Part shown: positions 966-22,256 of the stretch, one piece after another
Layout of the letters: each line of letters starts with the position of its first letter
Position numbering within the stretch: position 1 is the first letter of the stretch
Source of the DNA: Candidatus Portiera aleyrodidarum
GTDB taxonomy: Bacteria > Pseudomonadota > Gammaproteobacteria > Johnevansiales > Johnevansiaceae
Reading direction: 5' to 3'
DNA: 32,000 nt
NCBI RefSeq assembly: GCF_000953295.1
Contig: NZ_LN649255.1
Span: forward strand, 210,001-242,000
Translations under genes and position numbers: made by a program
Notes under the pieces: model-generated
The model's database searches: none
What the model saw: the letters and a program-made list of their open reading frames with translations, nothing else
Told to the model about the DNA's origin: nothing

Positions 966-1840
966 TTCTTTTTTATAACATACATTGTGGCGCTTCGTGA
1001 ACTTTTATTAAAAATAAGTTCTTCTTTATTTGGATATATTTTTTTTAAATTATATTTTTTTTTATTTATAGTATTAGTTTTAATTAAAGATTTTATTAAA
1101 GTTGATTCTAAAGAATTAAAAGTAATAATAATTAATTTTTTATTTATATCTAAAAGGTCTAAAGATGAAATTATTACTTTCTCTAGATTAGTTAATTCAT
1201 TATTTATATAAATACGTATAGATTGAAAAACTTTTGTTGCAGGATGGGTTTTATTTTTTTTAAATTTTATTTTTTTTATTAAATTAGATAATTCTAAAGT
1301 CATTTTAAATGGATATTTAATCCTACGTTTACATATTTCGTTTGTAATTTTATTTGACTTTTTATCTTCTCCATATTTTTTTAATATATTTAAAATTTCT
1401 TTTTTTTTATAATTATTTAACATTTCAGAAGCTTTTATTCCTAAGTTATTATTTATTCTCATATCTAATGGACCATTTTTATAAAAACTAAAACCTCTTT
1501 TAAAATCTTTAATTTGATTTTTAGAAATTCCTAAATCTAATAAAATTCCAGATACTTTTCCTAATTTTTTTTTAAAAGCAAAATTTTCTAATTTATTAAA
1601 ATTTATATTAATCAATTTAAATCTTTTATCACGAATTATTTTTTTTGCATAAATCTTTGTATTAAAATCATTATCTATTGCTATTAATTTACCTTTTTTA
1701 GATAATCTTTTTAAGATCTTTTTGCTATGTCCTCCACTTCCATAAGTACAATCTATATATATCCCATCTTGATTATTTATTAATAAATCAATAGCTTTAT
1801 TTATAAATAAACTTTTCTGATTAGTTTCTTGATTTTTCAT
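962..1840 (-). CDS. rsmH: 16S rRNA (cytosine1402-N4)-methyltransferase RsmH (MraW)
   Basis: ATG start, 292 aa. Motifs DGIYIDCTYGSGGHS (SAM-binding), AIDND, GILLDLGISKNQ and RGFSF..NGPLDMR are characteristic of RsmH. Confidence 0.9.
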   Translation of the reverse strand: MKNQETNQKSLFINKAIDLLINNQDGIYIDCTYGSGGHSKKILKRLSKKGKLIAIDNDFNTKIYAKKIIRDKRFKLININFNKLENFAFKKKLGKVSGILLDLGISKNQIKDFKRGFSFYKNGPLDMRINNNLGIKASEMLNNYKKKEILNILKKYGEDKKSNKITNEICKRRIKYPFKMTLELSNLIKKIKFKKNKTHPATKVFQSIRIYINNELTNLEKVIISSLDLLDINKKLIIITFNSLESTLIKSLIKTNTINKKKYNLKKIYPNKEELIFNKSSRSATMYVIKKN

Positions 1841-2163
1841 ATACCATAAGCCGGATTCTGTTATAAATTTACAGTCATTTATCTAATATATATATTACTA
1901 TATATATATATGCAACTTACCAGAATTTTTTTTATAGAGCTTAAATTCTTTTTTAGTTTTACTCAAAGTGGGGTTTACATAACGAATTTGTTTCCAAACA
2001 CGCGGGATGCTTTTACCAAACCATTTCACCTTTATCTAAAAAATAGATAGTATTTTTTCTTTTGTACTTTTCCGTCAAATTTTGCCCAGCGCTTAACTGG
2101 CACTTTTCTCTTCGAGTCCGGACTTTCCTCTTATAAATCTTTTATAAGTGACTGTATAGTATA
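1841..2163 (-). ncRNA. rnpB: RNase P RNA (bacterial type A), reduced, about 323 nt; ends approximate
   Basis: The minus strand reads ..AUACUAUACAGUCAC..AGAGGAAAGUCCGGACUC..GUGCCAGUUAAGCGCUGGGC..AGGUGAAAUGGUUUGGUAAAAGC..AUGACUGU..ACAGAAUCCGGCUUAUGGUAU. It contains the universal elements GAGGAAAGUCCGG and ACAGAAUCCGGCUUA. P1 can pair (AUACUAUA with UAUGGUAU) and P2 can pair (CAGUCA with UGACUG). The element fills an otherwise unexplained GC-richer 350-bp gap. Confidence 0.9.
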
Positions 2164-2190
2164 TTACTTATTTATAAAAAAAATTATAAT

Positions 2191-3038: not shown

Positions 3039-3665
3039 TTATATAATAGAAATTAATAATTCAAGTAATGGATTTATATATTTATATTTTCTAATCATAG
3101 CCGACTTATTTACTATTAATCTAGTACTTATATTTGTTATTAAGTTTTTTGGCTCCATTCCATTTCTTTTTAATGTATTTCCTGTATCAACTATATCTAT
3201 AATTTCATCTGCTATATTCATAAGTGGGGCTAATTCCATAGCTCCATATAATTTGATTATTTCAGCATTTATACCTTTACTTGCATAATAATTTTTTGCT
3301 ATTTTAATAAATTTTGTTGCTACTTTACGTTTTCTTTTTTTTATATTAAAACCAATTAAACCTGCAGTCATTAAACGACATTTAGAAATTTTAAAATCTA
3401 TTGGTTCATAAAAACCTTTAGAACCATTTTCTAATAAAACATCCTTACCAACAATTCCCATATCAGCTGCACCTAATTTAACATAAGTAGGCACATCTAT
3501 CGCTCTTAAAAAAATTAAATTTAAATATTTTTTTTTTGTATTAAATAATAATTTTCTATTATTATTTATAGAATCAATGGGAATTATACCTGCTTTTTTT
3601 ATTAATGATAAACTTTTTAAAAGTATACGTCCTTTGGATAAAGCAATTACTAAAGGTTCTATCAT
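3039..3665 (-). CDS. hisG: ATP phosphoribosyltransferase, short form (HisG-S)
   Basis: 208 aa with IALSKGRIL, RAIDVPTYVKLGAADMGIVGKDVL, LYGAMELAP and DIVDTGNTLK.NG. There is no C-terminal regulatory domain, so this is the short form. Confidence 0.9.
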   Translation of the reverse strand: MIEPLVIALSKGRILLKSLSLIKKAGIIPIDSINNNRKLLFNTKKKYLNLIFLRAIDVPTYVKLGAADMGIVGKDVLLENGSKGFYEPIDFKISKCRLMTAGLIGFNIKKRKRKVATKFIKIAKNYYASKGINAEIIKLYGAMELAPLMNIADEIIDIVDTGNTLKRNGMEPKNLITNISTRLIVNKSAMIRKYKYINPLLELLISII

Positions 3666-3745
3666 AAGATTTTTATTATTCTAGTTATATTTTTATTTTA
3701 TTTATATTATTATATATTATTTATAGACTTTAAGGAAAAGTTTTA

Positions 3746-3997
3746 ATGAAAATTAATATAAATAATTTAACTAAATTATCTAAATTAAATAAAAATAAAT
3801 TTCTTTTAAAAGATTTTAAAAAACAAATAAATTTATTATTAAAAAATTTATTTGTTATTAATATAAATTATATAAAACCTATTACAAATCCATTAAATAA
3901 TAAATATAATTTAAAAATAAGAAAAGATAGAGTTAAAAAACCTAAAAATTTAAAAGCACATATTAATAATTTTTATATTATTCCTAATATTTTATAA
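3746..3997 (+). CDS. gatC: Asp/Glu-tRNA amidotransferase subunit C (divergent)
   Basis: 83 aa, directly upstream of gatA. It keeps the GatC-like pattern I..L.KLSKL...., ..IRKDRV.. and the C-terminal FYIIPNIL (compare LR.D.V and Y.VP.V in GatC). The sequence is strongly Lys/Asn/Ile-biased, so the call rests on position plus weak motifs. Confidence 0.7.
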   Translation: MKININNLTKLSKLNKNKFLLKDFKKQINLLLKNLFVININYIKPITNPLNNKYNLKIRKDRVKKPKNLKAHINNFYIIPNIL

Positions 3998-4001
3998 AAA
4001 A

Positions 4002-5426
4002 ATGACAATAATTGATATTATTAATGGTTTAAAAAATAAACAATTTTCTTGTTACGAACTAATAAAATTTATATTAAAAAAAATAAAAAAAAATAATAAA
4101 GATTTAAATTGTTTTATAACAATTGAATATAAAACAGCTTTAAAAGAAGCAAAAAAATATGATTTTTTACGGAAATTTAATCAAAATAATTTATTAAATG
4201 GTATACCAATCGCTTATAAAGATATCTTTTGTACCAAAGGTATAAAAACAACTTGTGGATCTAATTTTTTAAAAAATTTTATTCCTACTTATAATTCTAC
4301 TCTTATTGAAAAACTTAAATATTATGGTTTTATAAATTTAGGGAAAACAAATATGGATGAATTTGCTATGGGATCGTTTAATGAAAGTAGTTATTTTGGA
4401 CAAGTTAAAAATCCTTGGAATTTAAATTTAGTATCTGGTGGGTCATCTGGGGGATCTGCATCAGCTATATCTGCTGGATTAATTCCAGCTTCTTTAGGTA
4501 CAGATACTGGAGGTTCTATAAGATTACCTTCTTCTTATTGTGGAATTACTGGTTTAAAACCTACTTATGGTTATTTGTCCAGATATGGAATTATTTCTTA
4601 TTCATCTAGTTTAGATCAAGCTGGGCCAATGGCTCATACTGTAGAAGATTGTGCAATATTATTAAATCTCCTTTCTGGTTATGATAAGCTTGATTCTACT
4701 AATATAAAATTAAATAAATATAATTTTTTAAATTATATAAATAATTCTATATCTGGAATAAAAATTGGATTACCAATAGAATATTTAAAAAATATTAATT
4801 CAAAGTTTTCTTGTCTAATACAAGACGCAATAAATATTTATAAAAAATTAGGAATAAATTTTGTTGATATTAGTTTGCCTTATATTGAATCAGCAATTTC
4901 TGCTTATTATATTATAGTTTCAGCTGAAGCTGCTTCTAATTTAGCAAAATATGATGGTATAAAATATGGATATTATAAAATAAATCCTAAATCGTTAAAG
5001 GATTTATATATAAATCCTCGTACAATTGGGTTTGGTAAACAAGTAAAAAATCGTATTTTAACAGGAACATATATATTAAATAATATAAAATATTTTATTA
5101 AAGCAAAAAAAATTAGAAATTATATTTCTAATAACTTTATAAAAATTTTTAAAAAAGTTAATGCTATAATAATACCTACAACAAAATATAGAGCTAATAA
5201 ATTTAATAAAAAAAATCAAAAGTTAAACCTGCAACAAGACATTTATACAATATCTATAAATTTAGCTGGTTTGCCTGTTATAAATATACCAATCGGATTT
5301 ATTAATAAATGTCCTATCGGTTTTCAAATTATAACACCTCCTTTTACTGAAAACTTATTATTAAATATCGCTCATTCTTATCAAAAAAATACTAATTGGC
5401 ATTTAAATTATCCAAATATTTTATAA
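4002..5426 (+). CDS. gatA: Asp/Glu-tRNA amidotransferase subunit A
   Basis: 474 aa with the amidase signature GGSSGGSASAISAG..PASLGTDTGGSIRLPSSYCGITGLKPTYG..SRYG...SSSLDQAGP. Confidence 0.95.
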   Translation: MTIIDIINGLKNKQFSCYELIKFILKKIKKNNKDLNCFITIEYKTALKEAKKYDFLRKFNQNNLLNGIPIAYKDIFCTKGIKTTCGSNFLKNFIPTYNSTLIEKLKYYGFINLGKTNMDEFAMGSFNESSYFGQVKNPWNLNLVSGGSSGGSASAISAGLIPASLGTDTGGSIRLPSSYCGITGLKPTYGYLSRYGIISYSSSLDQAGPMAHTVEDCAILLNLLSGYDKLDSTNIKLNKYNFLNYINNSISGIKIGLPIEYLKNINSKFSCLIQDAINIYKKLGINFVDISLPYIESAISAYYIIVSAEAASNLAKYDGIKYGYYKINPKSLKDLYINPRTIGFGKQVKNRILTGTYILNNIKYFIKAKKIRNYISNNFIKIFKKVNAIIIPTTKYRANKFNKKNQKLNLQQDIYTISINLAGLPVINIPIGFINKCPIGFQIITPPFTENLLLNIAHSYQKNTNWHLNYPNIL

Positions 5427-5438
5427 TGGGGTTATATA

Positions 5439-6881
5439 ATGTTAAATAAATGGGAAACTATTATTGGGATTGAAACTCATATACAATTATCAACAAAATC
5501 TAAATTATTTTCTAATTCTTCTACAAAATTTTGTATTTACCCTAATAAACAAATTTGTAATTTAGATATAGGTATGCCAGGAGTATTACCAAAATTAAAT
5601 AAAAAAGCTCTGGCTCTGGCTATTCGTTTTGGTTTAATTATAAATACTAAAATTTATAATAAATCAATTTTTGAAAGGAAAAATTATTTTTATCCAGATT
5701 TGCCTAAAGGATATCAAATAAGTCAAAAAAAAAAACCAATTTTAGGATATGGAAAAATTTCCATAGATTTAGAGAAATATCAAACTATATATATAGATCA
5801 TGTAAATTTAGAAGAAGATGCAGGTAAATTATTACATTATAAAAATAAAAGTGCAATTGATTTTAATAGATCAGGTATACCGTTATTGGAAATCATTACT
5901 AAACCTAGTTTATTAACTTATAAAGAAGTTATAAGTTATTTAAAATATCTAAATAAAATTGTAAAATATATAAATATATCTGATGCTAATTTAGCTAAAG
6001 GTGAAATGCGGTGTGATATAAATATATCAATAAGAAAAAAAGGAAATAAAAAAAATAACAATTATATTGAAATTAAAAATTTAAATTCTTATAAAAATAT
6101 TAAAAATGCAATTTTATATGAAACTAAAAGACAAATTAATATTTTAACTAAAGGTGGAAAAATAATTAAAGAAACTCGATTATATAATTTTAAAAAAAAC
6201 AAAACTTATATTTTACGTAAAAAAGAAAATAAAAATGATTATTTATATTTAAATTGTCCTGATTTATTAGAATTAAAATTAAATAAAAACTTTTTTTTTA
6301 AACAAAAAAAATCTATACCTGATTTTCCTCAAAATAAATTAAAATATTTTATAAAAATAGGATTATCTTTTAAAGAAGCTGATCTTATAACAAAGACTTT
6401 AGAAATCTCAAATTTTTTTGAAAAAACCTTTAAATTTTGTAATGATGTTAAATTAACATATACATGGATAACTTGTTATCTTTTTGAAAAATTAAAATTT
6501 TATTATTTAAAAATTAAACAAAGTCCAATTAAATATGAGTTATTAGGTAACTTATTAAGTTATATAAAAAAAAATATTATAAATATTAATTTAGCTAAAT
6601 TTATATTTAATAAATTATGGAATAAAAAAATAAATAATATAGAAAAAGAAATAAATAAAATAAAAACAGAACAAATAAATGATAAGAAATTGTTAAAGTT
6701 AATAACTTTAACATTTAATGAAAATTTATTACAACTTGAATTATATAAAAATTCAAATTTTAAAAAGAAAAAAAATATATTAAATTTTTTTATAGGGAAA
6801 GTAATAAAAAAATCAAAAAATAAAGCTAATCCAAAAAAAATTAATTTTTTTATAAATAAAAAATTAAATAAGTTAATATGA
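5439..6881 (+). CDS. gatB: Asp/Glu-tRNA amidotransferase subunit B
   Basis: 480 aa with WETIIGIETHIQL, GMPGVLP.LN, FERKNYFYPDLPKGYQISQ, LEEDAGK and MRCDINIS. The C-terminal tail domain is degenerate but retains GKV.KKSK.KANPK. Confidence 0.93.
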   Translation: MLNKWETIIGIETHIQLSTKSKLFSNSSTKFCIYPNKQICNLDIGMPGVLPKLNKKALALAIRFGLIINTKIYNKSIFERKNYFYPDLPKGYQISQKKKPILGYGKISIDLEKYQTIYIDHVNLEEDAGKLLHYKNKSAIDFNRSGIPLLEIITKPSLLTYKEVISYLKYLNKIVKYINISDANLAKGEMRCDINISIRKKGNKKNNNYIEIKNLNSYKNIKNAILYETKRQINILTKGGKIIKETRLYNFKKNKTYILRKKENKNDYLYLNCPDLLELKLNKNFFFKQKKSIPDFPQNKLKYFIKIGLSFKEADLITKTLEISNFFEKTFKFCNDVKLTYTWITCYLFEKLKFYYLKIKQSPIKYELLGNLLSYIKKNIININLAKFIFNKLWNKKINNIEKEINKIKTEQINDKKLLKLITLTFNENLLQLELYKNSNFKKKKNILNFFIGKVIKKSKNKANPKKINFFINKKLNKLI

Positions 6882-8338
6882 AAAATATAATAGTAATAAT
6901 TGGATCTGGTTTTGGAGGAATAGCTGCAGGGTTGAGAGCTAAAAAAAAAGGTTTTGATGTAATAATAATAGAACGTAATAAAAATATTGGTGGGAAAGCA
7001 CAAATATATAAAGATAATAATTATATATTTGATGCAGGTCCTACCGTTATTACAGCACCTTATTTATTTTCAGAATTATATAAACTTTTTGGAAAAAAAA
7101 TTAATAATTATATAAAATTTCTAGAATTAAAAAACTGGTATAATTTTTATTTTTTTGATAAAACTAAATTTAATTATTATAAAAATTTAAAAAAAACTGA
7201 AAAAAATATAAAAAAGTTTTCAAAAAAAGATATATATGGATATAAAAAATTATTATTAATTACAAAAATTTTTTTTGATAATTGTTTTAAATATTTTTCA
7301 ATTAAACCATTTAATAACTTTTATCAAATGATAAAATGTATACCTTTTTTTATAAAATTAAAATGTTATAAATCATATTTTAATTTAATTAAAATTTTTA
7401 TAAAAAATAATAACTTAAAGCAAATGTTTTTTATTTATCCGTTATTAATAGGTGGAAATCCATATAAGTTATCTTGTTTATACTCATTAATTATATATTT
7501 AGAAAGAAAATGGGGAATTCATTTTCCCAAAGGGGGAATAGGTTTTTTAATAAATAAATTAGAAATTTTAATGAGAGAAGAAGGTATAAAAATATATACA
7601 GGAGTAACAGTTAAGAAAATTATTACATATAAAAAAAAAGCAATAGCAATAAAATTAAATAATAATCATTATATTAAAACTAATTATATTGTTTCTAATA
7701 TTGAACCTAAATATTTATATAATAAGTTAATTAATATAAAAAATAATTTTTTAATAAAAAAGAAATTATCAAATAAAGAATATTCTTTTGGATTATTTAT
7801 ATTATATTTTGGTACTAATTATTTTTATTCAAATATTTATCATCATACAATATTATTTAATAATAATTATTATTTTTCAATAAAAAATATTTTTTATAAA
7901 AAGCATTTTAATAAAAAAAATATTAGCATTTATTTACATCATCCTACTAGAACTGATAAGTTATTAAAAAAATCTACTTTTTATGCCTTAATACCTGTAC
8001 CTAATTTAAAATATTATAAAAATTGGTCTAGATATGAAAATGAACTTTTTGTTCAAGATATAATCTCAATATTAGATTCAAAATTATTACCAAAATTAAA
8101 AAAAAATATAAAAACCTGTTTTTATATTACTCCAAAATTTTTTAAAAAAAGATATTTTAATACATTTGGTAGTGGTTTTTCAATTTCTCCTAATTTAAAT
8201 CAAATAGCATGGTTTAGATTTCATAATAAATCAGAATTAATAAAAAATCTTTATTTAGTAGGAGCCGGTACACATCCTGGGGCAGGAATCCCTGGCGTTT
8301 TATTAAGTGCAAAATTAATAGATAAATTCATTATATGA
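6878..8338 (+). CDS. crtI: Phytoene desaturase (CrtI type)
   Basis: 486 aa. The N-terminal dinucleotide fold is IIGSGFGGIAAGLRAKKKGFDV.IIERN...GGKA. It also has FDAGPTVIT and the C-terminal signature LYLVGAGTHPGAGIPGVLLSAK. The start ATG overlaps the gatB TGA stop (ATGA). Confidence 0.9.
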   Translation: MKNIIVIIGSGFGGIAAGLRAKKKGFDVIIIERNKNIGGKAQIYKDNNYIFDAGPTVITAPYLFSELYKLFGKKINNYIKFLELKNWYNFYFFDKTKFNYYKNLKKTEKNIKKFSKKDIYGYKKLLLITKIFFDNCFKYFSIKPFNNFYQMIKCIPFFIKLKCYKSYFNLIKIFIKNNNLKQMFFIYPLLIGGNPYKLSCLYSLIIYLERKWGIHFPKGGIGFLINKLEILMREEGIKIYTGVTVKKIITYKKKAIAIKLNNNHYIKTNYIVSNIEPKYLYNKLINIKNNFLIKKKLSNKEYSFGLFILYFGTNYFYSNIYHHTILFNNNYYFSIKNIFYKKHFNKKNISIYLHHPTRTDKLLKKSTFYALIPVPNLKYYKNWSRYENELFVQDIISILDSKLLPKLKKNIKTCFYITPKFFKKRYFNTFGSGFSISPNLNQIAWFRFHNKSELIKNLYLVGAGTHPGAGIPGVLLSAKLIDKFII

Positions 8339-9195
8339 ATAAGAAAATTTTAAAAAGTTCAAATAAAATAATAAAAAAATATAGTAAAAATTTTTATTTT
8401 ACAAGTTTTTTTATAATAAAAAAATATTCAAAATATTTAAAAATAATTTATTTTATATGTAGAAAACTTGATGAAATTGCTGATAAAAATTATTTAAATT
8501 CTAAAAAAAAATCTTTGAAAAGATTAACAGTAATATTAAAACAAATAAAAAATAATTCTAAACAAAAATTAGATAAACTTTCTAAATTAATAAAAAATTT
8601 AAAAAAAAATAAATCAATAAATTTAAATTCATTTATTGATTTAATCAATTGTTTAATAAAGGATATAAAATATCCAGCAAATATAAAAAATGAAAAAGAA
8701 TTAATATATTATTGTTATGGAGTAGCTGGTACTATAGGGAATATAGTTTTACCTTTTATAAAATGTTCAATAACTAATACTATTAAGGCTATCAATTTAG
8801 GTATTTTTTTGCAAATGATTAATATTGCTAGAGATGTGTTAGAAGATGCTTTTAAAGGAAGACGTTATTTGCCAGCATGTTGGGTTAATAATATAAATGC
8901 AAAAGAAATTATTTATTTATCAAATATTCCTATTAACAAAAAACATAAACTAATTTCATCTGCTATTATTCGTTTACTTTTTTTATCAGAATATTATTAT
9001 ATTAAAGGTATAAAAAATATTTATAAAGTAAATTATATAAATCGTATAATTATAACAATAATTAGTTCAATATATTATAAAATAAATATAAATATAAGTA
9101 ATACTAAATATTATTGGATTTATAAACGTATTTATATATCTTTATATTATAAAATATTTATAACGCTAAAAACTATTATTAAATCTATATGTTAA
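8335..9195 (+). CDS. crtB: Phytoene synthase (CrtB)
   Basis: 286 aa with SKNFYFTS, two Asp-rich motifs (CRKLDEIAD and ARDVLEDA), YCYGVAGTIG and LGIFLQMINIARDV.ED...GRRYLPACW. The start overlaps the crtI stop (ATGA). Confidence 0.88.
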   Translation: MNKKILKSSNKIIKKYSKNFYFTSFFIIKKYSKYLKIIYFICRKLDEIADKNYLNSKKKSLKRLTVILKQIKNNSKQKLDKLSKLIKNLKKNKSINLNSFIDLINCLIKDIKYPANIKNEKELIYYCYGVAGTIGNIVLPFIKCSITNTIKAINLGIFLQMINIARDVLEDAFKGRRYLPACWVNNINAKEIIYLSNIPINKKHKLISSAIIRLLFLSEYYYIKGIKNIYKVNYINRIIITIISSIYYKININISNTKYYWIYKRIYISLYYKIFITLKTIIKSIC

Positions 9196-10322
9196 AAAAA
9201 AAAATCTATGATATAGATATCTTAATTTTAGGAGGTGGATGCTCTGGTTTATCTTTAGCTTATTATTTAAGTTTTTTACCAAATAATTTAAACATTTTGA
9301 TAATTGAAAATAAAAAATTATATTATAATGATAAAACATGGTGTGGTTGGAGAATAAAAAATCATGCTTTTATAAATTGTTGTAAAAAAACTTGGTATAA
9401 TATAAAAATAAAAAAAGAAAAAAATTCTTATTCAATAATAAATTTTTCTATTCCGTATGAATATATATTATCAATATTATTTTATAAAAAAATTATAAAT
9501 AGAATAAAAATTCTTCAGAATATTAAAATATATAATAATAAAATTTTAAATATAAAAGAATACAATGAATATGTATCAATAAAATTAAATAATGGAGAAT
9601 ATAAAATTGCACATTGGGTAATAGATACTTTACCTAAAAAAATAAAAATAAATTTACCTTGGAAATGGCAAAATTTTTTTGGGATTGAATTATATTCTAA
9701 TAAAAAATATTCAAAACCAAGTTTAATGAATTTTTATATAAATAAATATTTAAAATCTAATAAATTAAATTTTATCTATATTTTACCAATAAATAAAAAT
9801 CAAATATTATTTGAATGGACTAATTTTTATAAAAAAAAAAATCTTTATATAAAAAAATTATTAATTTATTATATAAATATTGTTTTAGGAATTTATAATT
9901 ATAAAATTTTAAGAAAAGAAACAGGCCATATACCAATGGCTTATATTATAAATAAAAAAAAATTAAAAAACTTAGCTAAAATATATGGTTGTTATATACG
10001 TCCCTCTACTGGATATTCATTTAATGAAATACAAAACTGGGCTATTAAATGTGCTTATAATTTATCAATAAATAAAAAAATTATAATACCAAAAGTTCCA
10101 TATTTTTTAATATTTTTAGATTATATTTATATGAAAACAAATGAATTTTTTCCTAAAAATTCGTTATTATTATATAATAATATTTTTTATAAAATAAAAT
10201 CTAATACTTTCATTAAATTTTTTACAAATAATCCAAATATAATAGATATCTTTAATATATTATTTTTTCTTAAACCAAAATCGATTTTATTATATACATT
10301 TATAATGATTTTATTTAAATAA
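9189..10322 (+). CDS. crtY: Lycopene beta-cyclase (CrtY type)
   Basis: 377 aa with an N-terminal [17 protein letters not shown] fold. DKTWCGW, FFGIEL, FIYILP....[15 protein letters not shown] and RPSTGYSF align position by position with my recollection of Pantoea CrtY (NHTWSFH, FIGQEW, FVYSLP..LLIEDTHY, QGALPIT, HPTTGYSL). Confidence 0.85.
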
Positions 10323-11405
10323 ATTCCCTTTATATTGTGATTTAAATTCATTTCTTAATGAATTTATTATTTCATCTAAATTCCCAGAAATAATATTATT
10401 TAAATCATATATAGTTAAATTAATTCTATGATCTGTTACACGTCCTTGAGGATAATTATAAGTCCTAATGCGCTCTGATCTATCACCTGAACCTATTAAT
10501 GATTTTCTAATTTTTGATTGTGTTTTTTGAAGTTCATCTTTATATTTTTGTTTTAATTTTGCTTTTAATAATAAAATAGCTTTATATTTATTTTTATGTT
10601 GGGAGCGCTCTGTTTGACATGAAACTACTATATTTGTTGGAATATGTGTAATTCTAACAGCAGAATCAGTTGTATTAACATGCTGACCTCCTGCCCCACT
10701 AGATCTATAAGTATCTATTCTTAAATCTTCTATATTTATATTTATTTTTATATTTAAATCTTTTTTTATTTCAGCCATAACAGCTACAGTACAAGCTGAA
10801 GTATGTATTCTACCTATTGATTCAGTATTAGGTATTCTTTGTACTCTATGAGTCCCAGACTCAAATTTTAATTTCCCATATATTCCAGAACCTTTCATTC
10901 TTAAGATTATTTCTTTAAAACCACCATATTCTCCTGGATTAAAACTTATTAATTCATTTTTCCATCCATTTTTTTCTGCATATTTATAATACATACGAAA
11001 TAAATCCCCAGCAAAAATAGCAGCTTCAGAACCTCCGGTTCCTGCGCGGATTTCTAAAAAAATACCATTTTTATCTTCTTTATTAGAATTTTTTATTAAT
11101 ATATTTTTTATATTTAATTTTATATTAAATAATTTTCTTTTTATATTTTTAATTTCTTCAATAACTAAATTACGAATTTCTAAATCATTTTCATAATACA
11201 TTTTTTTATTATAATTTATTTCTAATTCTAATTTTTTATATTTTTTCCATAATTTTACTAATTTTTCTAATTTTGAATATTCACGTGAATATTTTATATA
11301 TTTATTTTTGTTATTAAGAATTTCAATTTTAGAAAGTAAAATAGATAAATTATAAAATTTTTTTTCAATTTTATTTAAATAATTACGTAATTTATATTTA
11401 ATCAA
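10311..11405 (-). CDS. prfA: Peptide chain release factor 1
   Basis: 364 aa with the GGQ motif ([22 protein letters not shown]), [22 protein letters not shown], and an RF1-type tripeptide region [14 protein letters not shown] (PxT, not SPF). The start as listed is TTG; there is no in-frame ATG near the N-terminus. Confidence 0.93.
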
Positions 11406-11482
11406 ATTAATTTACCTATTTATATTTAAAATAATATATAATTATAATAATATAATATAATGATTTTTAGGTAAGTGTAAAT

Positions 11483-12430
11483 ATGATTTTATCTAAATTA
11501 ATGCTATTTACTGGTAATTCAAATATAGAACTAGCAAAAAAAATTGCTAGTTGTTTAAAGACAAAATTAGGTAATTCTACAGTTAATAAATTTAGTGACG
11601 GTGAAATTTCTGTTGAAATTAAAGAAAATGTAAGAGGTAAAGATATTTTTATTTTACAATCAACTTGTGTACCTACTAATGATAATTTAATAGAATTAAT
11701 TTTAATTGTTGATGCTTTACGTAGAGCCTCAGCTACAAGAATTACAGCTGTAATTCCTTATTTAGGATATGCTAGACAAGATCGTAGAATAAGATCTACC
11801 CGTGTTCCTATTTCTGCCAAAGTTATTGCTGATATGATTGTTAAAGTAGGTGTCGATCGTGTGATGACGATGGATTTACATTCAGATCAAATACAAGGTT
11901 TTTTTGATGTGCCTGTAGATAATATTTATGGTTATCCTGTACTTATAAAAGATATAGAAAGTCAAAAATATAACAATCTGGTGATAGTATCGCCAGATAT
12001 TGGTGGGGTTATACGTGCTCGTTCAATAGCTAAAGAATTAAATGTAGAATTATCTATTATTGATAAACGTCGCCCCAAAAAAAATCAAACACAAGTAATG
12101 CATATAATTGGAGATATAAAAAATCGGACATGTATATTAATTGATGATATTGCAGATACAGCTAGTACTTTATGCAAAGCAGCTGAATCACTAAAAAAAC
12201 AAGGAGCAAAATATGTCTTTGCTTATATTACTCATGCTATATTATCAGGTAATGCAATAGATATAATAAATAATTCATTTTTAGATAAATTAATAATTAC
12301 AGATACTATTCCTTTATCAAAAAAAGCTATTATTAGTAACAAAATAAGACAAGTATCTGTTGCTAGTCTAATTGCAGAAGCAATTCGTAGAGTTAATAAT
12401 GAAGAATCAATAAGTGCAATGTTTAATTAA
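11483..12430 (+). CDS. prs: Ribose-phosphate pyrophosphokinase (PRPP synthetase)
   Basis: 315 aa, collinear with E. coli PrsA as I recall it: [65 protein letters not shown] and NEESISAMF. Confidence 0.97.
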
Positions 12431-17922: not shown

Positions 17923-17996
17923 TAGGACTAAGCGGGGTTGAACCACTAACCTCCACGATGTTAACGTGGTGCTCTAACCAATTGAGCTACAGTCCT
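17923..17996 (-). tRNA. tRNA-Val, anticodon read as AAC (A at position 34)
   Basis: The minus strand reads AGGACTG TA GCTC AATTGGTTA GAGC A CCACG TTAACAT CGTGG AGGTT AGTGG TTCAACC CCGCT TAGTCCT A. The body resembles E. coli tRNA-Val(GAC) (GAGCACCACC-UUGACAU-GGUGG) but has A in place of G34. Discriminator is A73. The 5' 36 nt overlap the 3' end of apbC. Confidence 0.8.
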
Positions 17997-18793: not shown

Positions 18794-20482
18794 ATGTCAC
18801 GTAAAATTTTAGTAACTTGTGCTATGCCTTATGCTAATGGTGATCTTCATTTAGGTCATATGTTAGAATATATACAAACAGATATATGGGTTCGTTTTCA
18901 AAAAACTTTAGGAAATAAATGTTATTTTATATGTTCTGATGATTCACATGGGACTGCTATTATGTTACATGCAAAAAAAAAAAATATAAAACCAAAAGAA
19001 TTAATTTACCATATAAAAAAAAAACATATATATGATTTAAAAAAATTTAAAATTGATTTTGATATTTATTCTTGCACCCATACTAAAATTAATAAAATTA
19101 ATGTAGAAAAAATTTATAAAATATTAACTTATAAAGGATTTATTTATTGTAAAAAAATAAAACAATTATTTGATCCTATAAAAAAAATATTTTTATCTGA
19201 TAGATTAATATTAGGTAATTGTCCTAAATGTAATGCAAATAAACAATATGGAGATATGTGTGAATTTTGTGGAATAACATATAAACCTTTTGATTTAATT
19301 AATCCTATTTCAGTTTTAACAGGAATAAAACCTATAAAAAAATATTCAAATCATTATTTTTTTAAATTACCTTATTTTACAAAGTTTTTAAATAAATGGA
19401 TTAATAATTCAGGTGTGGTAAAAAATATGATTTATAACCAATTAAAAAGTTGGTTTAAAGTAGGACTTATAGAATGGGATATTTCACGGGATTCACCCTA
19501 TTTCGGTTTTAAAATTCCTAATCTTAAGAAACTTAAATTTTTTTATGTATGGATAGATGCTACAATCGGTTATTTATCAACGGTTCAAGAATTATGTTAT
19601 AAAAAAAGATTAGATTTTAATGAAATTTGGAATATAAAATCAAAATATGAAATTTATCATTTTATAGGTAAAGATATAATTTATTTTCATACATTATTTT
19701 GGCCAACTATTCTAAAAACAATGAATTTAAAACTACCTACTAAAATTAATTGTCATGGTTTTGTCACAATTAATGATAAAAAAATGTCTAAATCTAAAGG
19801 AACTTTTATTAAAGCTAAATTTTATGAAAAATTTATTGAACCTGAATATTTACGTTATTATTTTTCATCAAAAATTAATTCAAATATAGAAGATATAGAT
19901 ATTAATTTTAAAGATTTTTTTTATAAAATAAATTCTGATTTAATTGGTAAAATAATTAATATTGCAAGTCGATGTTATAAATTAATAAATAAATATAATA
20001 AAAATTATTTATCTAAAAATATTGAAAATAAAATCTTAATAAAATCTTTTATTAATATTGGTGATAAAATCTATTTTAATTATGAAAAACTTGACTTTTA
20101 TAAAGTTGTAAAAAAAATTTTAAATTTAGCAAATCAAACTAATTCTTATATTACAAAAAAATCACCCTGGTCCTTAAACGAAAAAAAAAAACAATATATA
20201 ATTGAGGTATGTTCTATGGGTTTAAATTTATTTCGTCAACTAATAATTTATTTATCTCCAATATTACCTAAATTAGCTATAAAAGTAAAAAATTTTCTTA
20301 ATTTAAAAACTTTAAATTGGAAAAGTCGTAAAAAACTTTTAATAAATCATAAAATAAAAAAATTTAACCCGCTCTTAAATCGAATTGAAAAAATACCCGA
20401 AGCCGGATTTGAACCAGCACGCCAAAAAAAGGCGGGGGATTTTAAGTCCCCTGCGTCTACCAATTCCGCCATTCGGGCTTGA
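18794..20482 (+). CDS. metG: Methionyl-tRNA synthetase (core enzyme, no C-terminal dimerisation/tRNA-binding domain)
   Basis: 562 aa with a HIGH-type motif (PYANGDLHLGHMLEYIQTD), a zinc knuckle (CPKC....YGDMCEFCG), WDISRD.PYFGF and KMSKSKGTF. The final ~29 aa (PEAGFEPARQKKAGDFKSPASTNSAIRA) are the antisense reading of tRNA-Leu. Confidence 0.93.
   Translation: MSRKILVTCAMPYANGDLHLGHMLEYIQTDIWVRFQKTLGNKCYFICSDDSHGTAIMLHAKKKNIKPKELIYHIKKKHIYDLKKFKIDFDIYSCTHTKINKINVEKIYKILTYKGFIYCKKIKQLFDPIKKIFLSDRLILGNCPKCNANKQYGDMCEFCGITYKPFDLINPISVLTGIKPIKKYSNHYFFKLPYFTKFLNKWINNSGVVKNMIYNQLKSWFKVGLIEWDISRDSPYFGFKIPNLKKLKFFYVWIDATIGYLSTVQELCYKKRLDFNEIWNIKSKYEIYHFIGKDIIYFHTLFWPTILKTMNLKLPTKINCHGFVTINDKKMSKSKGTFIKAKFYEKFIEPEYLRYYFSSKINSNIEDIDINFKDFFYKINSDLIGKIINIASRCYKLINKYNKNYLSKNIENKILIKSFINIGDKIYFNYEKLDFYKVVKKILNLANQTNSYITKKSPWSLNEKKKQYIIEVCSMGLNLFRQLIIYLSPILPKLAIKVKNFLNLKTLNWKSRKKLLINHKIKKFNPLLNRIEKIPEAGFEPARQKKAGDFKSPASTNSAIRA
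20394..20478 (-). tRNA. tRNA-Leu (anticodon TAA), class II with long variable arm
   Basis: The minus strand reads GCCCGAA TG GCGGAATTGGTAGACGC A GGGGA CTTAAAA TCCCC CGCC-TTTTTTT-GGCG T GCTGG TTCAAAT CCGGC TTCGGGT A. It lies entirely inside the metG ORF on the opposite strand. Confidence 0.92.
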
Positions 20483-21038: not shown

Positions 21039-22256
21039 ATGTCTAAAAAAGTTATTCTTGCTTTTTCGGGTGGATTAGATACTTCTGCTATTGTTAAATG
21101 GTTACAAGATACATATGGTTATGAAGTAATTACTTATACTGCTGATTTAGGACAAGAAAAAAAAGATATTAAATCTGCTTATAATAAAGCAAAATTCTTA
21201 GGAATAAAAAAAATTTATATAGAAGATTTACGAGAAATTTTTGTAAAAAATTATATTTTTCCTATGTTTAGAGCTAATACGATTTATGAAGTGGGATATC
21301 TTTTAGGCACTTCAATAGCACGCCCTTTAATTATTAAAAGGTTATTAGAAATAGCTAAAATAAATAATTCAAATATTATATCACATGGATCTACAGGAAA
21401 AGGTAATGACCAACTCAGATTTGAATTAGGTGCTTATTCATTAAATCCATATATAAAGATAATTGCCCCTTGGCGTGAATGGAATTTAGATTCCCGTAAA
21501 AAAATTATAAAATATTGTAAAAAAAATAATATAATGATTGATTATTTTAAAAAAAATAAATCTTTATATTCTATGGATAATAATTTATTACATATTTCTT
21601 ATGAAGGAGGTTTATTAGAAGATACTTGGGGTGAACCAGAAACTAATATGTGGAGATGGAGTAAGAATTTAAATATTACTCCAGATAAAGAAACTGTTAT
21701 TGATATAACTTTCCAAAACGGGGATCCAATAGCAATTAATAATGAATATTTTAAACCACATGAATTAATAATAAAATTAAACAAATTAGGAAGTAAACAT
21801 GGGATTGGTAGAATTGATATGGTGGAAAATAGATATCTAGGCATAAAATCGAGAGGGTGTTATGAAACACCTGGTGGTACCATATTATATAATGCACATA
21901 AAGCAATAGAATCTATAACTTTAGATCATGAATCTATTAAATTAAAAGATATTTTAATGCCGATCTATGCTGAAATAATTTATAATGGATATTGGTGGAC
22001 CCTAGAAAGAAAAATGTTACAATCTTTAATTGATACTTCTCAAAAATATGTTAATGGAATAGTTAGATTAAAATTATATAAAGGTAATGTAATTATAATA
22101 GGTAGAAAATCTGATCAATCTTTATTTAATTCATCTTATGCTACATTTGAAGAAGATAAAGGTATATATAATCAAAAAGATGCAGAAAGTTTTATAAAAT
22201 TAAAATCTATACGGTTAAAAATAGCATCAATTAAACAAAAAATTAAATGGAGTTAA
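21039..22256 (+). CDS. argG: Argininosuccinate synthase
   Basis: 405 aa with [12 protein letters not shown] (PP-loop), [21 protein letters not shown] and MVENR..GIKSRG.YETPGGT. AAGGA lies upstream of the ATG. Confidence 0.95.

Follow-up and report, generated by a model that had tools for sequence, protein, structure and literature searches.

The subject of this analysis is a cluster of three carotenoid genes, crtI, crtB and crtY, at positions 6878 to 10322 of a stretch of 32,000 nucleotides (hereafter the window; positions 210,001 to 242,000 of contig NZ_LN649255.1). The cluster is very probably the chromosomal crtIBY set of Candidatus Portiera aleyrodidarum strain AD-CAI, an obligate bacteriocyte symbiont, by means of which geranylgeranyl diphosphate (GGPP) supplied by the host would be converted to beta-carotene. 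This reading builds on the identity of the locus, the family membership of the three proteins, the retention of catalytic motifs, synteny, and intact open reading frames (ORFs) across Portiera. As judged from their sequences, the three genes form a real and intact carotenoid pathway, predicted to lead from GGPP to beta-carotene, and one that is ordinary and already known. Its general interest lies in an animal that gets carotenoids from an intracellular bacterium, which itself would need a host-made precursor.

Each of the three proteins matches an entry of Candidatus Portiera aleyrodidarum with 100% identity, namely CEI58801.1 (CrtI), CEI58802.1 (CrtB) and CEI58803.1 (CrtY), as found by a search with CrtI among 5.8 billion proteins and a subsequent exact look-up of all three. 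The window is part of the published genome of Portiera AD-CAI, the host of which is the whitefly Aleurodicus dispersus (Santos-Garcia et al. 2015, PMC5322561). This genome comprises 290,195 bp with 24% GC (PMC5322561, Table 1). Over 18.3 kb, the window shares 98.05% identity with the sister strain AF-CAI from Aleurodicus floccissimus (LN734649.1, 290,376 bp). A search of genome contigs with CrtI gave as its sole match an irrelevant Rossmann-fold hit in Flectobacillus. An earlier interpretation made from the letters only, the sequence-only reading, had guessed at whitefly Portiera, and the exact protein matches prove it right; they also rule out that the DNA comes from Profftella or from a novel lineage. 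It had further expected the pathway not to be new, with identity to a published genome as the finding that would remove any novelty. Indeed, both the pathway and its need for GGPP from the host have been published, and the locus is identical to that of a published genome; therefore, there is nothing new in the locus. The first descriptions of the Portiera crtI-crtB-crtY genes, in strains from Bemisia tabaci, are attributed to Sloan & Moran 2012 and Santos-Garcia et al. 2012. Earlier publications report the genome with its three crt genes, the conservation of these genes across Portiera, and their dependence on GGPP from the host (PMC5322561, PMC4607527, PMC4438442). The locus has its value as a positive control, in which the three enzymes, though strongly eroded, and the genus of the symbiont were correctly identified from raw sequence.

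The three ORFs follow each other on the plus strand, with crtI at 6878 to 8338 (486 amino acids, aa), crtB at 8335 to 9195 (286 aa) and crtY at 9189 to 10322 (377 aa). Consecutive frames overlap, by 4 nucleotides (nt) between crtI and crtB and by 7 nt between crtB and crtY, and these coordinates agree with the three overlapping ORFs that had been claimed. The family assignments and the motifs put forward for each protein hold as well: all of the motifs are present in the translations and fall in conserved alignment columns. CrtI, a member of the phytoene desaturase family, reaches 399.1 bits against TIGR02734 (cut-off 238.1) with residues 5 to 485 covered, and its residues 6 to 480 align to the solved CrtI of Pantoea ananatis (PDB 4DGK) with E=5e-96. 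The flavin adenine dinucleotide (FAD)-binding motif GSGFGG occupies residues 9 to 14 and the C-terminal motif is VGAGTHPGAGIPGV; GSGFGG and LVGAGTHPGAGIPGV are in register with the corresponding motifs of 4DGK.

CrtB belongs to the squalene/phytoene synthase family. It matches PF00494 (SQS_PSY) with 95.7 bits (cut-off 26) over residues 13 to 269, corresponding to profile positions 1 to 260 of 263, and it aligns to the dehydrosqualene synthase CrtM (2ZCO/3AE0, E=1e-19) with both Asp-rich motifs in register. These DxxxD motifs, of the Mg2+/diphosphate-binding type, are D46-E-I-A-D50 and D167-V-L-E-D171, the DEIAD and DVLED of the sequence-only reading. In the alignment with Portiera and marine homologues, D46, D50, D167, E170, D171, R176 and Y178 are invariant. 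NCBI names the protein "squalene/phytoene synthase family protein". A separate observation concerns WP_189514100.1, a partial "squalene/phytoene synthase" of 139 aa from a contig of 518 bp labelled Streptomyces narbonensis. It shares 97% identity with the C-terminal half of the CrtB of the window and has the AF-CAI residue at 4/4 of the differing positions. Judging by this match, the entry almost certainly stems from contamination of a Streptomyces assembly with whitefly-symbiont DNA.

CrtY, called "lycopene cyclase family protein" by NCBI, matches PF05834 (Lycopene_cycl) with 119.2 bits (cut-off 23.4). In an alignment of 15 sequences that includes free-living lycopene cyclases, it keeps 39/39 invariant columns, among which are D10, G15-G17, G20-A24, D48, W51, Q161, E209, T211, E244, G246, P249, G275, F278 and Q282. 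The conserved elements comprise the FAD-binding N-terminus, where the GGGCSG of the sequence-only reading is found, E209 in the Glu region, and RPSTGYSF, which represents the RxSTGY motif. No CrtY structure was found in the PDB by sequence search. An AF2 model (pLDDT 81.5, pTM 0.82) has the flavoprotein fold expected for CrtY, and Foldseek relates this model to FAD enzymes, with geranylgeranyl reductase 3ATQ as the best PDB match (E=1.6e-14) and UbiI and similar enzymes as other top matches (E about 1e-14). Residues 271 to 278 vary between the whitefly lineages: the Aleurodicus Portiera (AD and AF) have RPSTGYSF, which equals the free-living consensus, and the sequence reads RTSNGFSF in every one of the Aleyrodinae Portiera examined, a change specific to that lineage in a motif that is conserved elsewhere.

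The cluster seems to have resided in the Portiera chromosome for a long time, as had been proposed. The order hisG-gatCAB-crtI-crtB-crtY-prfA-prs-rplY is common to all Portiera records examined, which were AF-CAI, LR744089.1 (277,700 bp) from one further host, CP004358.1 and LN649236.1 from Trialeurodes vaporariorum and CP016343.1 from B. tabaci. The known Portiera crtI-crtB-crtY cluster is the same locus, with proteins 100% identical to those of the window, and has the same flanks throughout these records. This conserved synteny rules out a recent horizontal insertion. Gene order in Portiera has been stable for more than 125 million years (PMC5322561). Intact crt ORFs are found in lineages that span both whitefly subfamilies, with lengths in the compared Portiera of 486-487 aa for crtI, 284-287 aa for crtB and 377-380 aa for crtY.

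Between AD and AF, the ratio of non-synonymous to synonymous substitution rates (dN/dS, NG86) amounts to 0.11 for crtI, 0.47 for crtB and 0.32 for crtY, while that of other genes ranges from 0 to 0.38. In every comparison made, dN/dS is below 1. Across subfamilies, the apparent dS is 0.3-0.8 at a GC content of third codon positions (GC3) near 8%, where synonymous sites are compositionally saturated; therefore, the conclusions draw solely on the AD-AF ratios and on how the genes rank relative to one another. In this ranking, the crt proteins (62-81% identical across subfamilies; those of Aleyrodinae Portiera differ by 19-38% from those of the window) are similar to gatB, rplY and trpC and stand below prs or hisG. 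Synteny, conserved ORF lengths and dN/dS values below 1 are in line with the purifying selection and long residence that the sequence-only reading had argued for, and from these sequence comparisons the selection would be real, though not especially strong.

It could be imagined that the cluster is instead a decaying relic that is still open by chance, its low GC content and its abundance of Lys, Asn and Ile resulting from lost constraint. The crt genes are indeed among the most AT-rich of the window (15-18% GC) and among the less conserved, with 62-70% identity to their B. tabaci Portiera counterparts as compared to 87% for prs and hisG, and the AD-AF ratio of crtB is 0.47. However, a relic is highly improbable, since five Portiera lineages from both whitefly subfamilies retain all three ORFs intact and with conserved lengths, the catalytic residues are invariant and no comparison gives a dN/dS of 1 or more. 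Furthermore, genes that are either indispensable or retained, namely gatB, rplY and trpC, resemble the crt genes in both composition and divergence.

The composition had been regarded as more extreme than that of published Portiera, a point that does not stand: the window has 23.0% GC against the published 24%, and only the crt genes are locally lower. The crt segment as a whole has 16.3% GC (crtI 17.8%, crtB 15.3%, crtY 15.1%), and Lys, Asn, Ile, Tyr and Phe (K/N/I/Y/F) account for 56-60% of crt residues versus 26% in GroEL. This arises because the crt genes are among the fastest-evolving in the window. The "extreme" composition is a local property of fast-evolving genes and no sign of an unknown lineage.

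Homology and the literature together suggest the following reactions, end product and source of GGPP. CrtB would join two molecules of GGPP into phytoene. CrtI, an FAD enzyme, would introduce four double bonds into phytoene to give lycopene, the ends of which would be cyclised by CrtY, also an FAD enzyme, yielding beta-carotene or partly cyclised products. In published reconstructions of the metabolism, Portiera imports GGPP that the host bacteriocyte produces. The lack of a GGPP synthase and of crtZ or crtX next to the cluster, pointed out earlier, extends to the whole annotated window: none of its 29 complete and 2 end-truncated protein genes, a set that takes in every ORF of at least 80 aa except antisense shadow ORFs, encodes a polyprenyl synthase, CrtZ or CrtX. 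In the supplement of PMC5322561 there is no occurrence of ispA, crtE or crtB, and according to the same study, GGPP produced by the host is the starting material for carotenoids in all Portiera strains. Transcripts for GGPP synthesis are elevated in bacteriocytes (Luan et al. 2015, PMC4607527), and GGPP is listed as an input from B. tabaci (Rao et al. 2015, PMC4438442, Table 4). The latter authors also suggested a DitE-like permease as a possible transporter of isoprenoids or carotenoids (PMC4438442).

The iJC86 metabolic model of Portiera likewise imports GGPP (bioRxiv 10.1101/043349). On the basis of its stoichiometry, a mainly energetic role has been proposed for the pathway, in which the four desaturations by CrtI would reduce quinone and the ubiquinol oxidase of the symbiont would reoxidise the quinol, thereby generating proton-motive force. 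Carotenoids as a source of reducing power were also raised in PMC5322561. As the main role this is improbable: it is a model prediction only, and it leaves the retention of crtY unexplained, since CrtY adds no redox step. Moreover, an energetic benefit is compatible with the provisioning of pigment and not exclusive of it.

Some observations weigh against the cluster being a beta-carotene pathway fed by the host. CrtB remains below the NCBIfam equivalog models, with 77.7 bits for NF045686 (cut-off 550), 63.1 for NF042419 (480) and 62.7 for NF045921 (500), and scores slightly higher, at 87.3 bits, against the HpnD model (cut-off 278.6). As it reaches no equivalog, its C40 specificity is derived from context only, and the profiles on their own leave open whether it makes phytoene (C40) or dehydrosqualene (C30). 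Similarly, CrtY stays below TIGR01790 (68.9 bits, cut-off 209.5) and TIGR01789 (35.7 bits, cut-off 215.2), and the profiles by themselves do not fix a bicyclic or a monocyclic product. Both enzymes being far under their equivalog cut-offs, the exact substrate and product are deduced from context and not from profiles. For CrtY, the low scores would fit a strongly diverged, AT-biased sequence. In crtB, the AD-AF comparison involves roughly 12 amino-acid replacements and hardly any synonymous changes, which, taken alone, is also compatible with relaxed constraint. Finally, the absence of a polyprenyl synthase from the remaining 258 kb of the genome is taken from the literature.

The divergence of CrtB and CrtY leaves room for an end product other than beta-carotene, either a partly desaturated or monocyclic carotenoid such as beta-zeacarotene or gamma-carotene, or one made from a different prenyl substrate. 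Such a product is quite unlikely, because the alignment of CrtI to the Pantoea enzyme, which carries out four steps, extends from end to end, all invariant columns of CrtY are retained, and the crtI-crtB-crtY context matches the beta-carotene/retinal clusters of the closest homologues.

The order of the genes was presented as differing from that in Pantoea. This is correct, for the Pantoea cluster has the order Y-I-B and is accompanied by crtE, crtX and crtZ. As an unusual lead, however, the observation fails, since the I-B-Y order is common to all Portiera examined and to the nearest free-living homologues. The latter are marine crtI-crtB-crtY-blh(-ispH) contigs labelled Pelagibacterales or Pelagibacteraceae, which share with Portiera the I-B-Y order, the overlapping frames and the lack of an adjacent crtE. 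Among the candidates listed, they are the closest homologues outside Portiera, with 44-50% identity for CrtI and about 30-35% for CrtY; this list was produced by a word-based prefilter, which may be biased towards AT-rich sequences, and any taxonomic affinity to Pelagibacterales-type contigs is accordingly tentative. The Pantoea/Erwinia crtE-X-Y-I-B-Z clusters contain the same three enzyme families, but Pantoea CrtI is only 33-36% identical. The CrtI identities were compared for three Portiera lineages, with and without composition correction. In contrast to the marine clusters, Portiera has no blh (beta-carotene dioxygenase, PF15461) or ispH after crtY; there, prfA abuts crtY. It is conceivable, though we put it forward only tentatively, that the Portiera genes derive from a marine retinal-type crtI-crtB-crtY-blh cluster (a proteorhodopsin accessory) and not from the Pantoea type, blh having been lost and the beta-carotene being used by the host. 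This origin is suggested because the nearest homologues share gene order and overlapping frames, and have the higher CrtI identity.

Among reduced insect symbionts, Profftella armatura from psyllids has the same three-gene set without crtE, but there the set is plasmid-borne and of the Pantoea/Pseudescherichia type, unlike the chromosomal cluster of Portiera (PMC7643613). The two gene sets have been judged to be of independent bacterial origin (Nakabachi et al. 2020, PMC7643613).

Directly upstream of crtI lies gatC-gatA-gatB (3746 to 6881, plus strand), in which GatA matches TIGR00132 with 508 bits and GatB matches NF004014 with 511 bits; four other Portiera genomes have these genes arranged likewise. 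The overlap of 4 nt between the gatB stop and the crtI start makes it likely, from the arrangement of the codons, that gatCAB and crtI are co-transcribed. A promoter scan of positions 3500 to 11600 gave 79 promoter-like sites versus 96 expected from shuffles and is uninformative at such AT content; therefore, the operon structure is deduced only from overlapping stop and start codons. In the same region, 8 terminator-like hairpins were found, as compared to 0.8 +/- 0.9 in shuffles. Several of these are within crtI, for example at 7521-7539 and 8277-8295 (plus strand), the second of which falls on the GC-rich codons that encode the conserved motif HPGAGIPGV. The hairpins are probably not terminators but a side effect of conserved Gly and Pro codons that lie in T-rich surroundings.

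The presumed gatC (3746-3997, plus strand, 83 aa) is an extreme case in composition, with 9.1% GC, a GC3 of 1.2% and 63% K/N/I/Y/F. It matched no NCBIfam model at E<=1e-5, and it owes its name to its position before gatA-gatB, conserved in all Portiera loci, as the sole basis. At the other end of the cluster, prfA (10311 to 11405, minus strand; TIGR00019, 473.7 bits) is convergent with crtY. The 3' ends of the two genes overlap by 12 nt, so that there is no space for a fourth carotenoid gene.

The gene map of the window, in which a prime denotes a gene cut by the window end and (-) the minus strand, begins with gltP', aroQ, rsmH(-), RNase P RNA(-), rpsI(-), rplM(-) and hisG(-). Then come gatC, gatA, gatB, crtI, crtB, crtY, prfA(-), prs and rplY, followed by tRNA-Met, tRNA-Asn(-), trpC(-), trpD(-), trpG(-), trpE(-), tRNA-Lys(-), upp(-), tRNA-Val(-) and apbC(-). 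The map continues with metG, tRNA-Leu(-), tRNA-Cys(-), tRNA-Ala, grxD, argG, groES and groEL and ends with rpsA(-), aroA(-), pheA(-), gyrA(-) and secA'(-).

Near the start of the map, no rsmH is called in LR744089.1 (locus 116-1348) at the place that the gene occupies in the window and in the other strains. Only a stretch of 201 aa aligns there, with 74% identity, which suggests that the gene may be truncated or pseudogenised in that lineage. The RNase P RNA (1832-2167, minus strand; Rfam RF00010, 176 bits) occupies the gap between rsmH and rpsI, and its 3' end overlaps the region of the rsmH start codon by 9 nt.

The tRNA-Val gene (17923-17996, minus strand) has the anticodon AAC (loop TTAACAT), while its AF-CAI orthologue (locus 21042-21115) has GAC. 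At 90.5% identity (7/74 positions differ), the two genes are less alike than the genomes as a whole, which are 98% identical. An A34 is unusual in a bacterial tRNA-Val. The Val codons of the window genes are GTT (177), GTC (11), GTA (184) and GTG (22); GTT being frequent among them, a tRNA with A34 would match this dominant codon. The same tRNA gene overlaps the apbC ORF on the same strand, in the final 36 nt of the latter (17961-17996). Likewise, tRNA-Leu(UAA) (20394-20478, minus strand) is located antisense within the final ~89 nt of metG as an ORF, and the profile match of MetG stops at residue 533 of 562. The tails of the metG and apbC ORFs are probably not coding but represent read-through into tRNA genes, stop codons being scarce.

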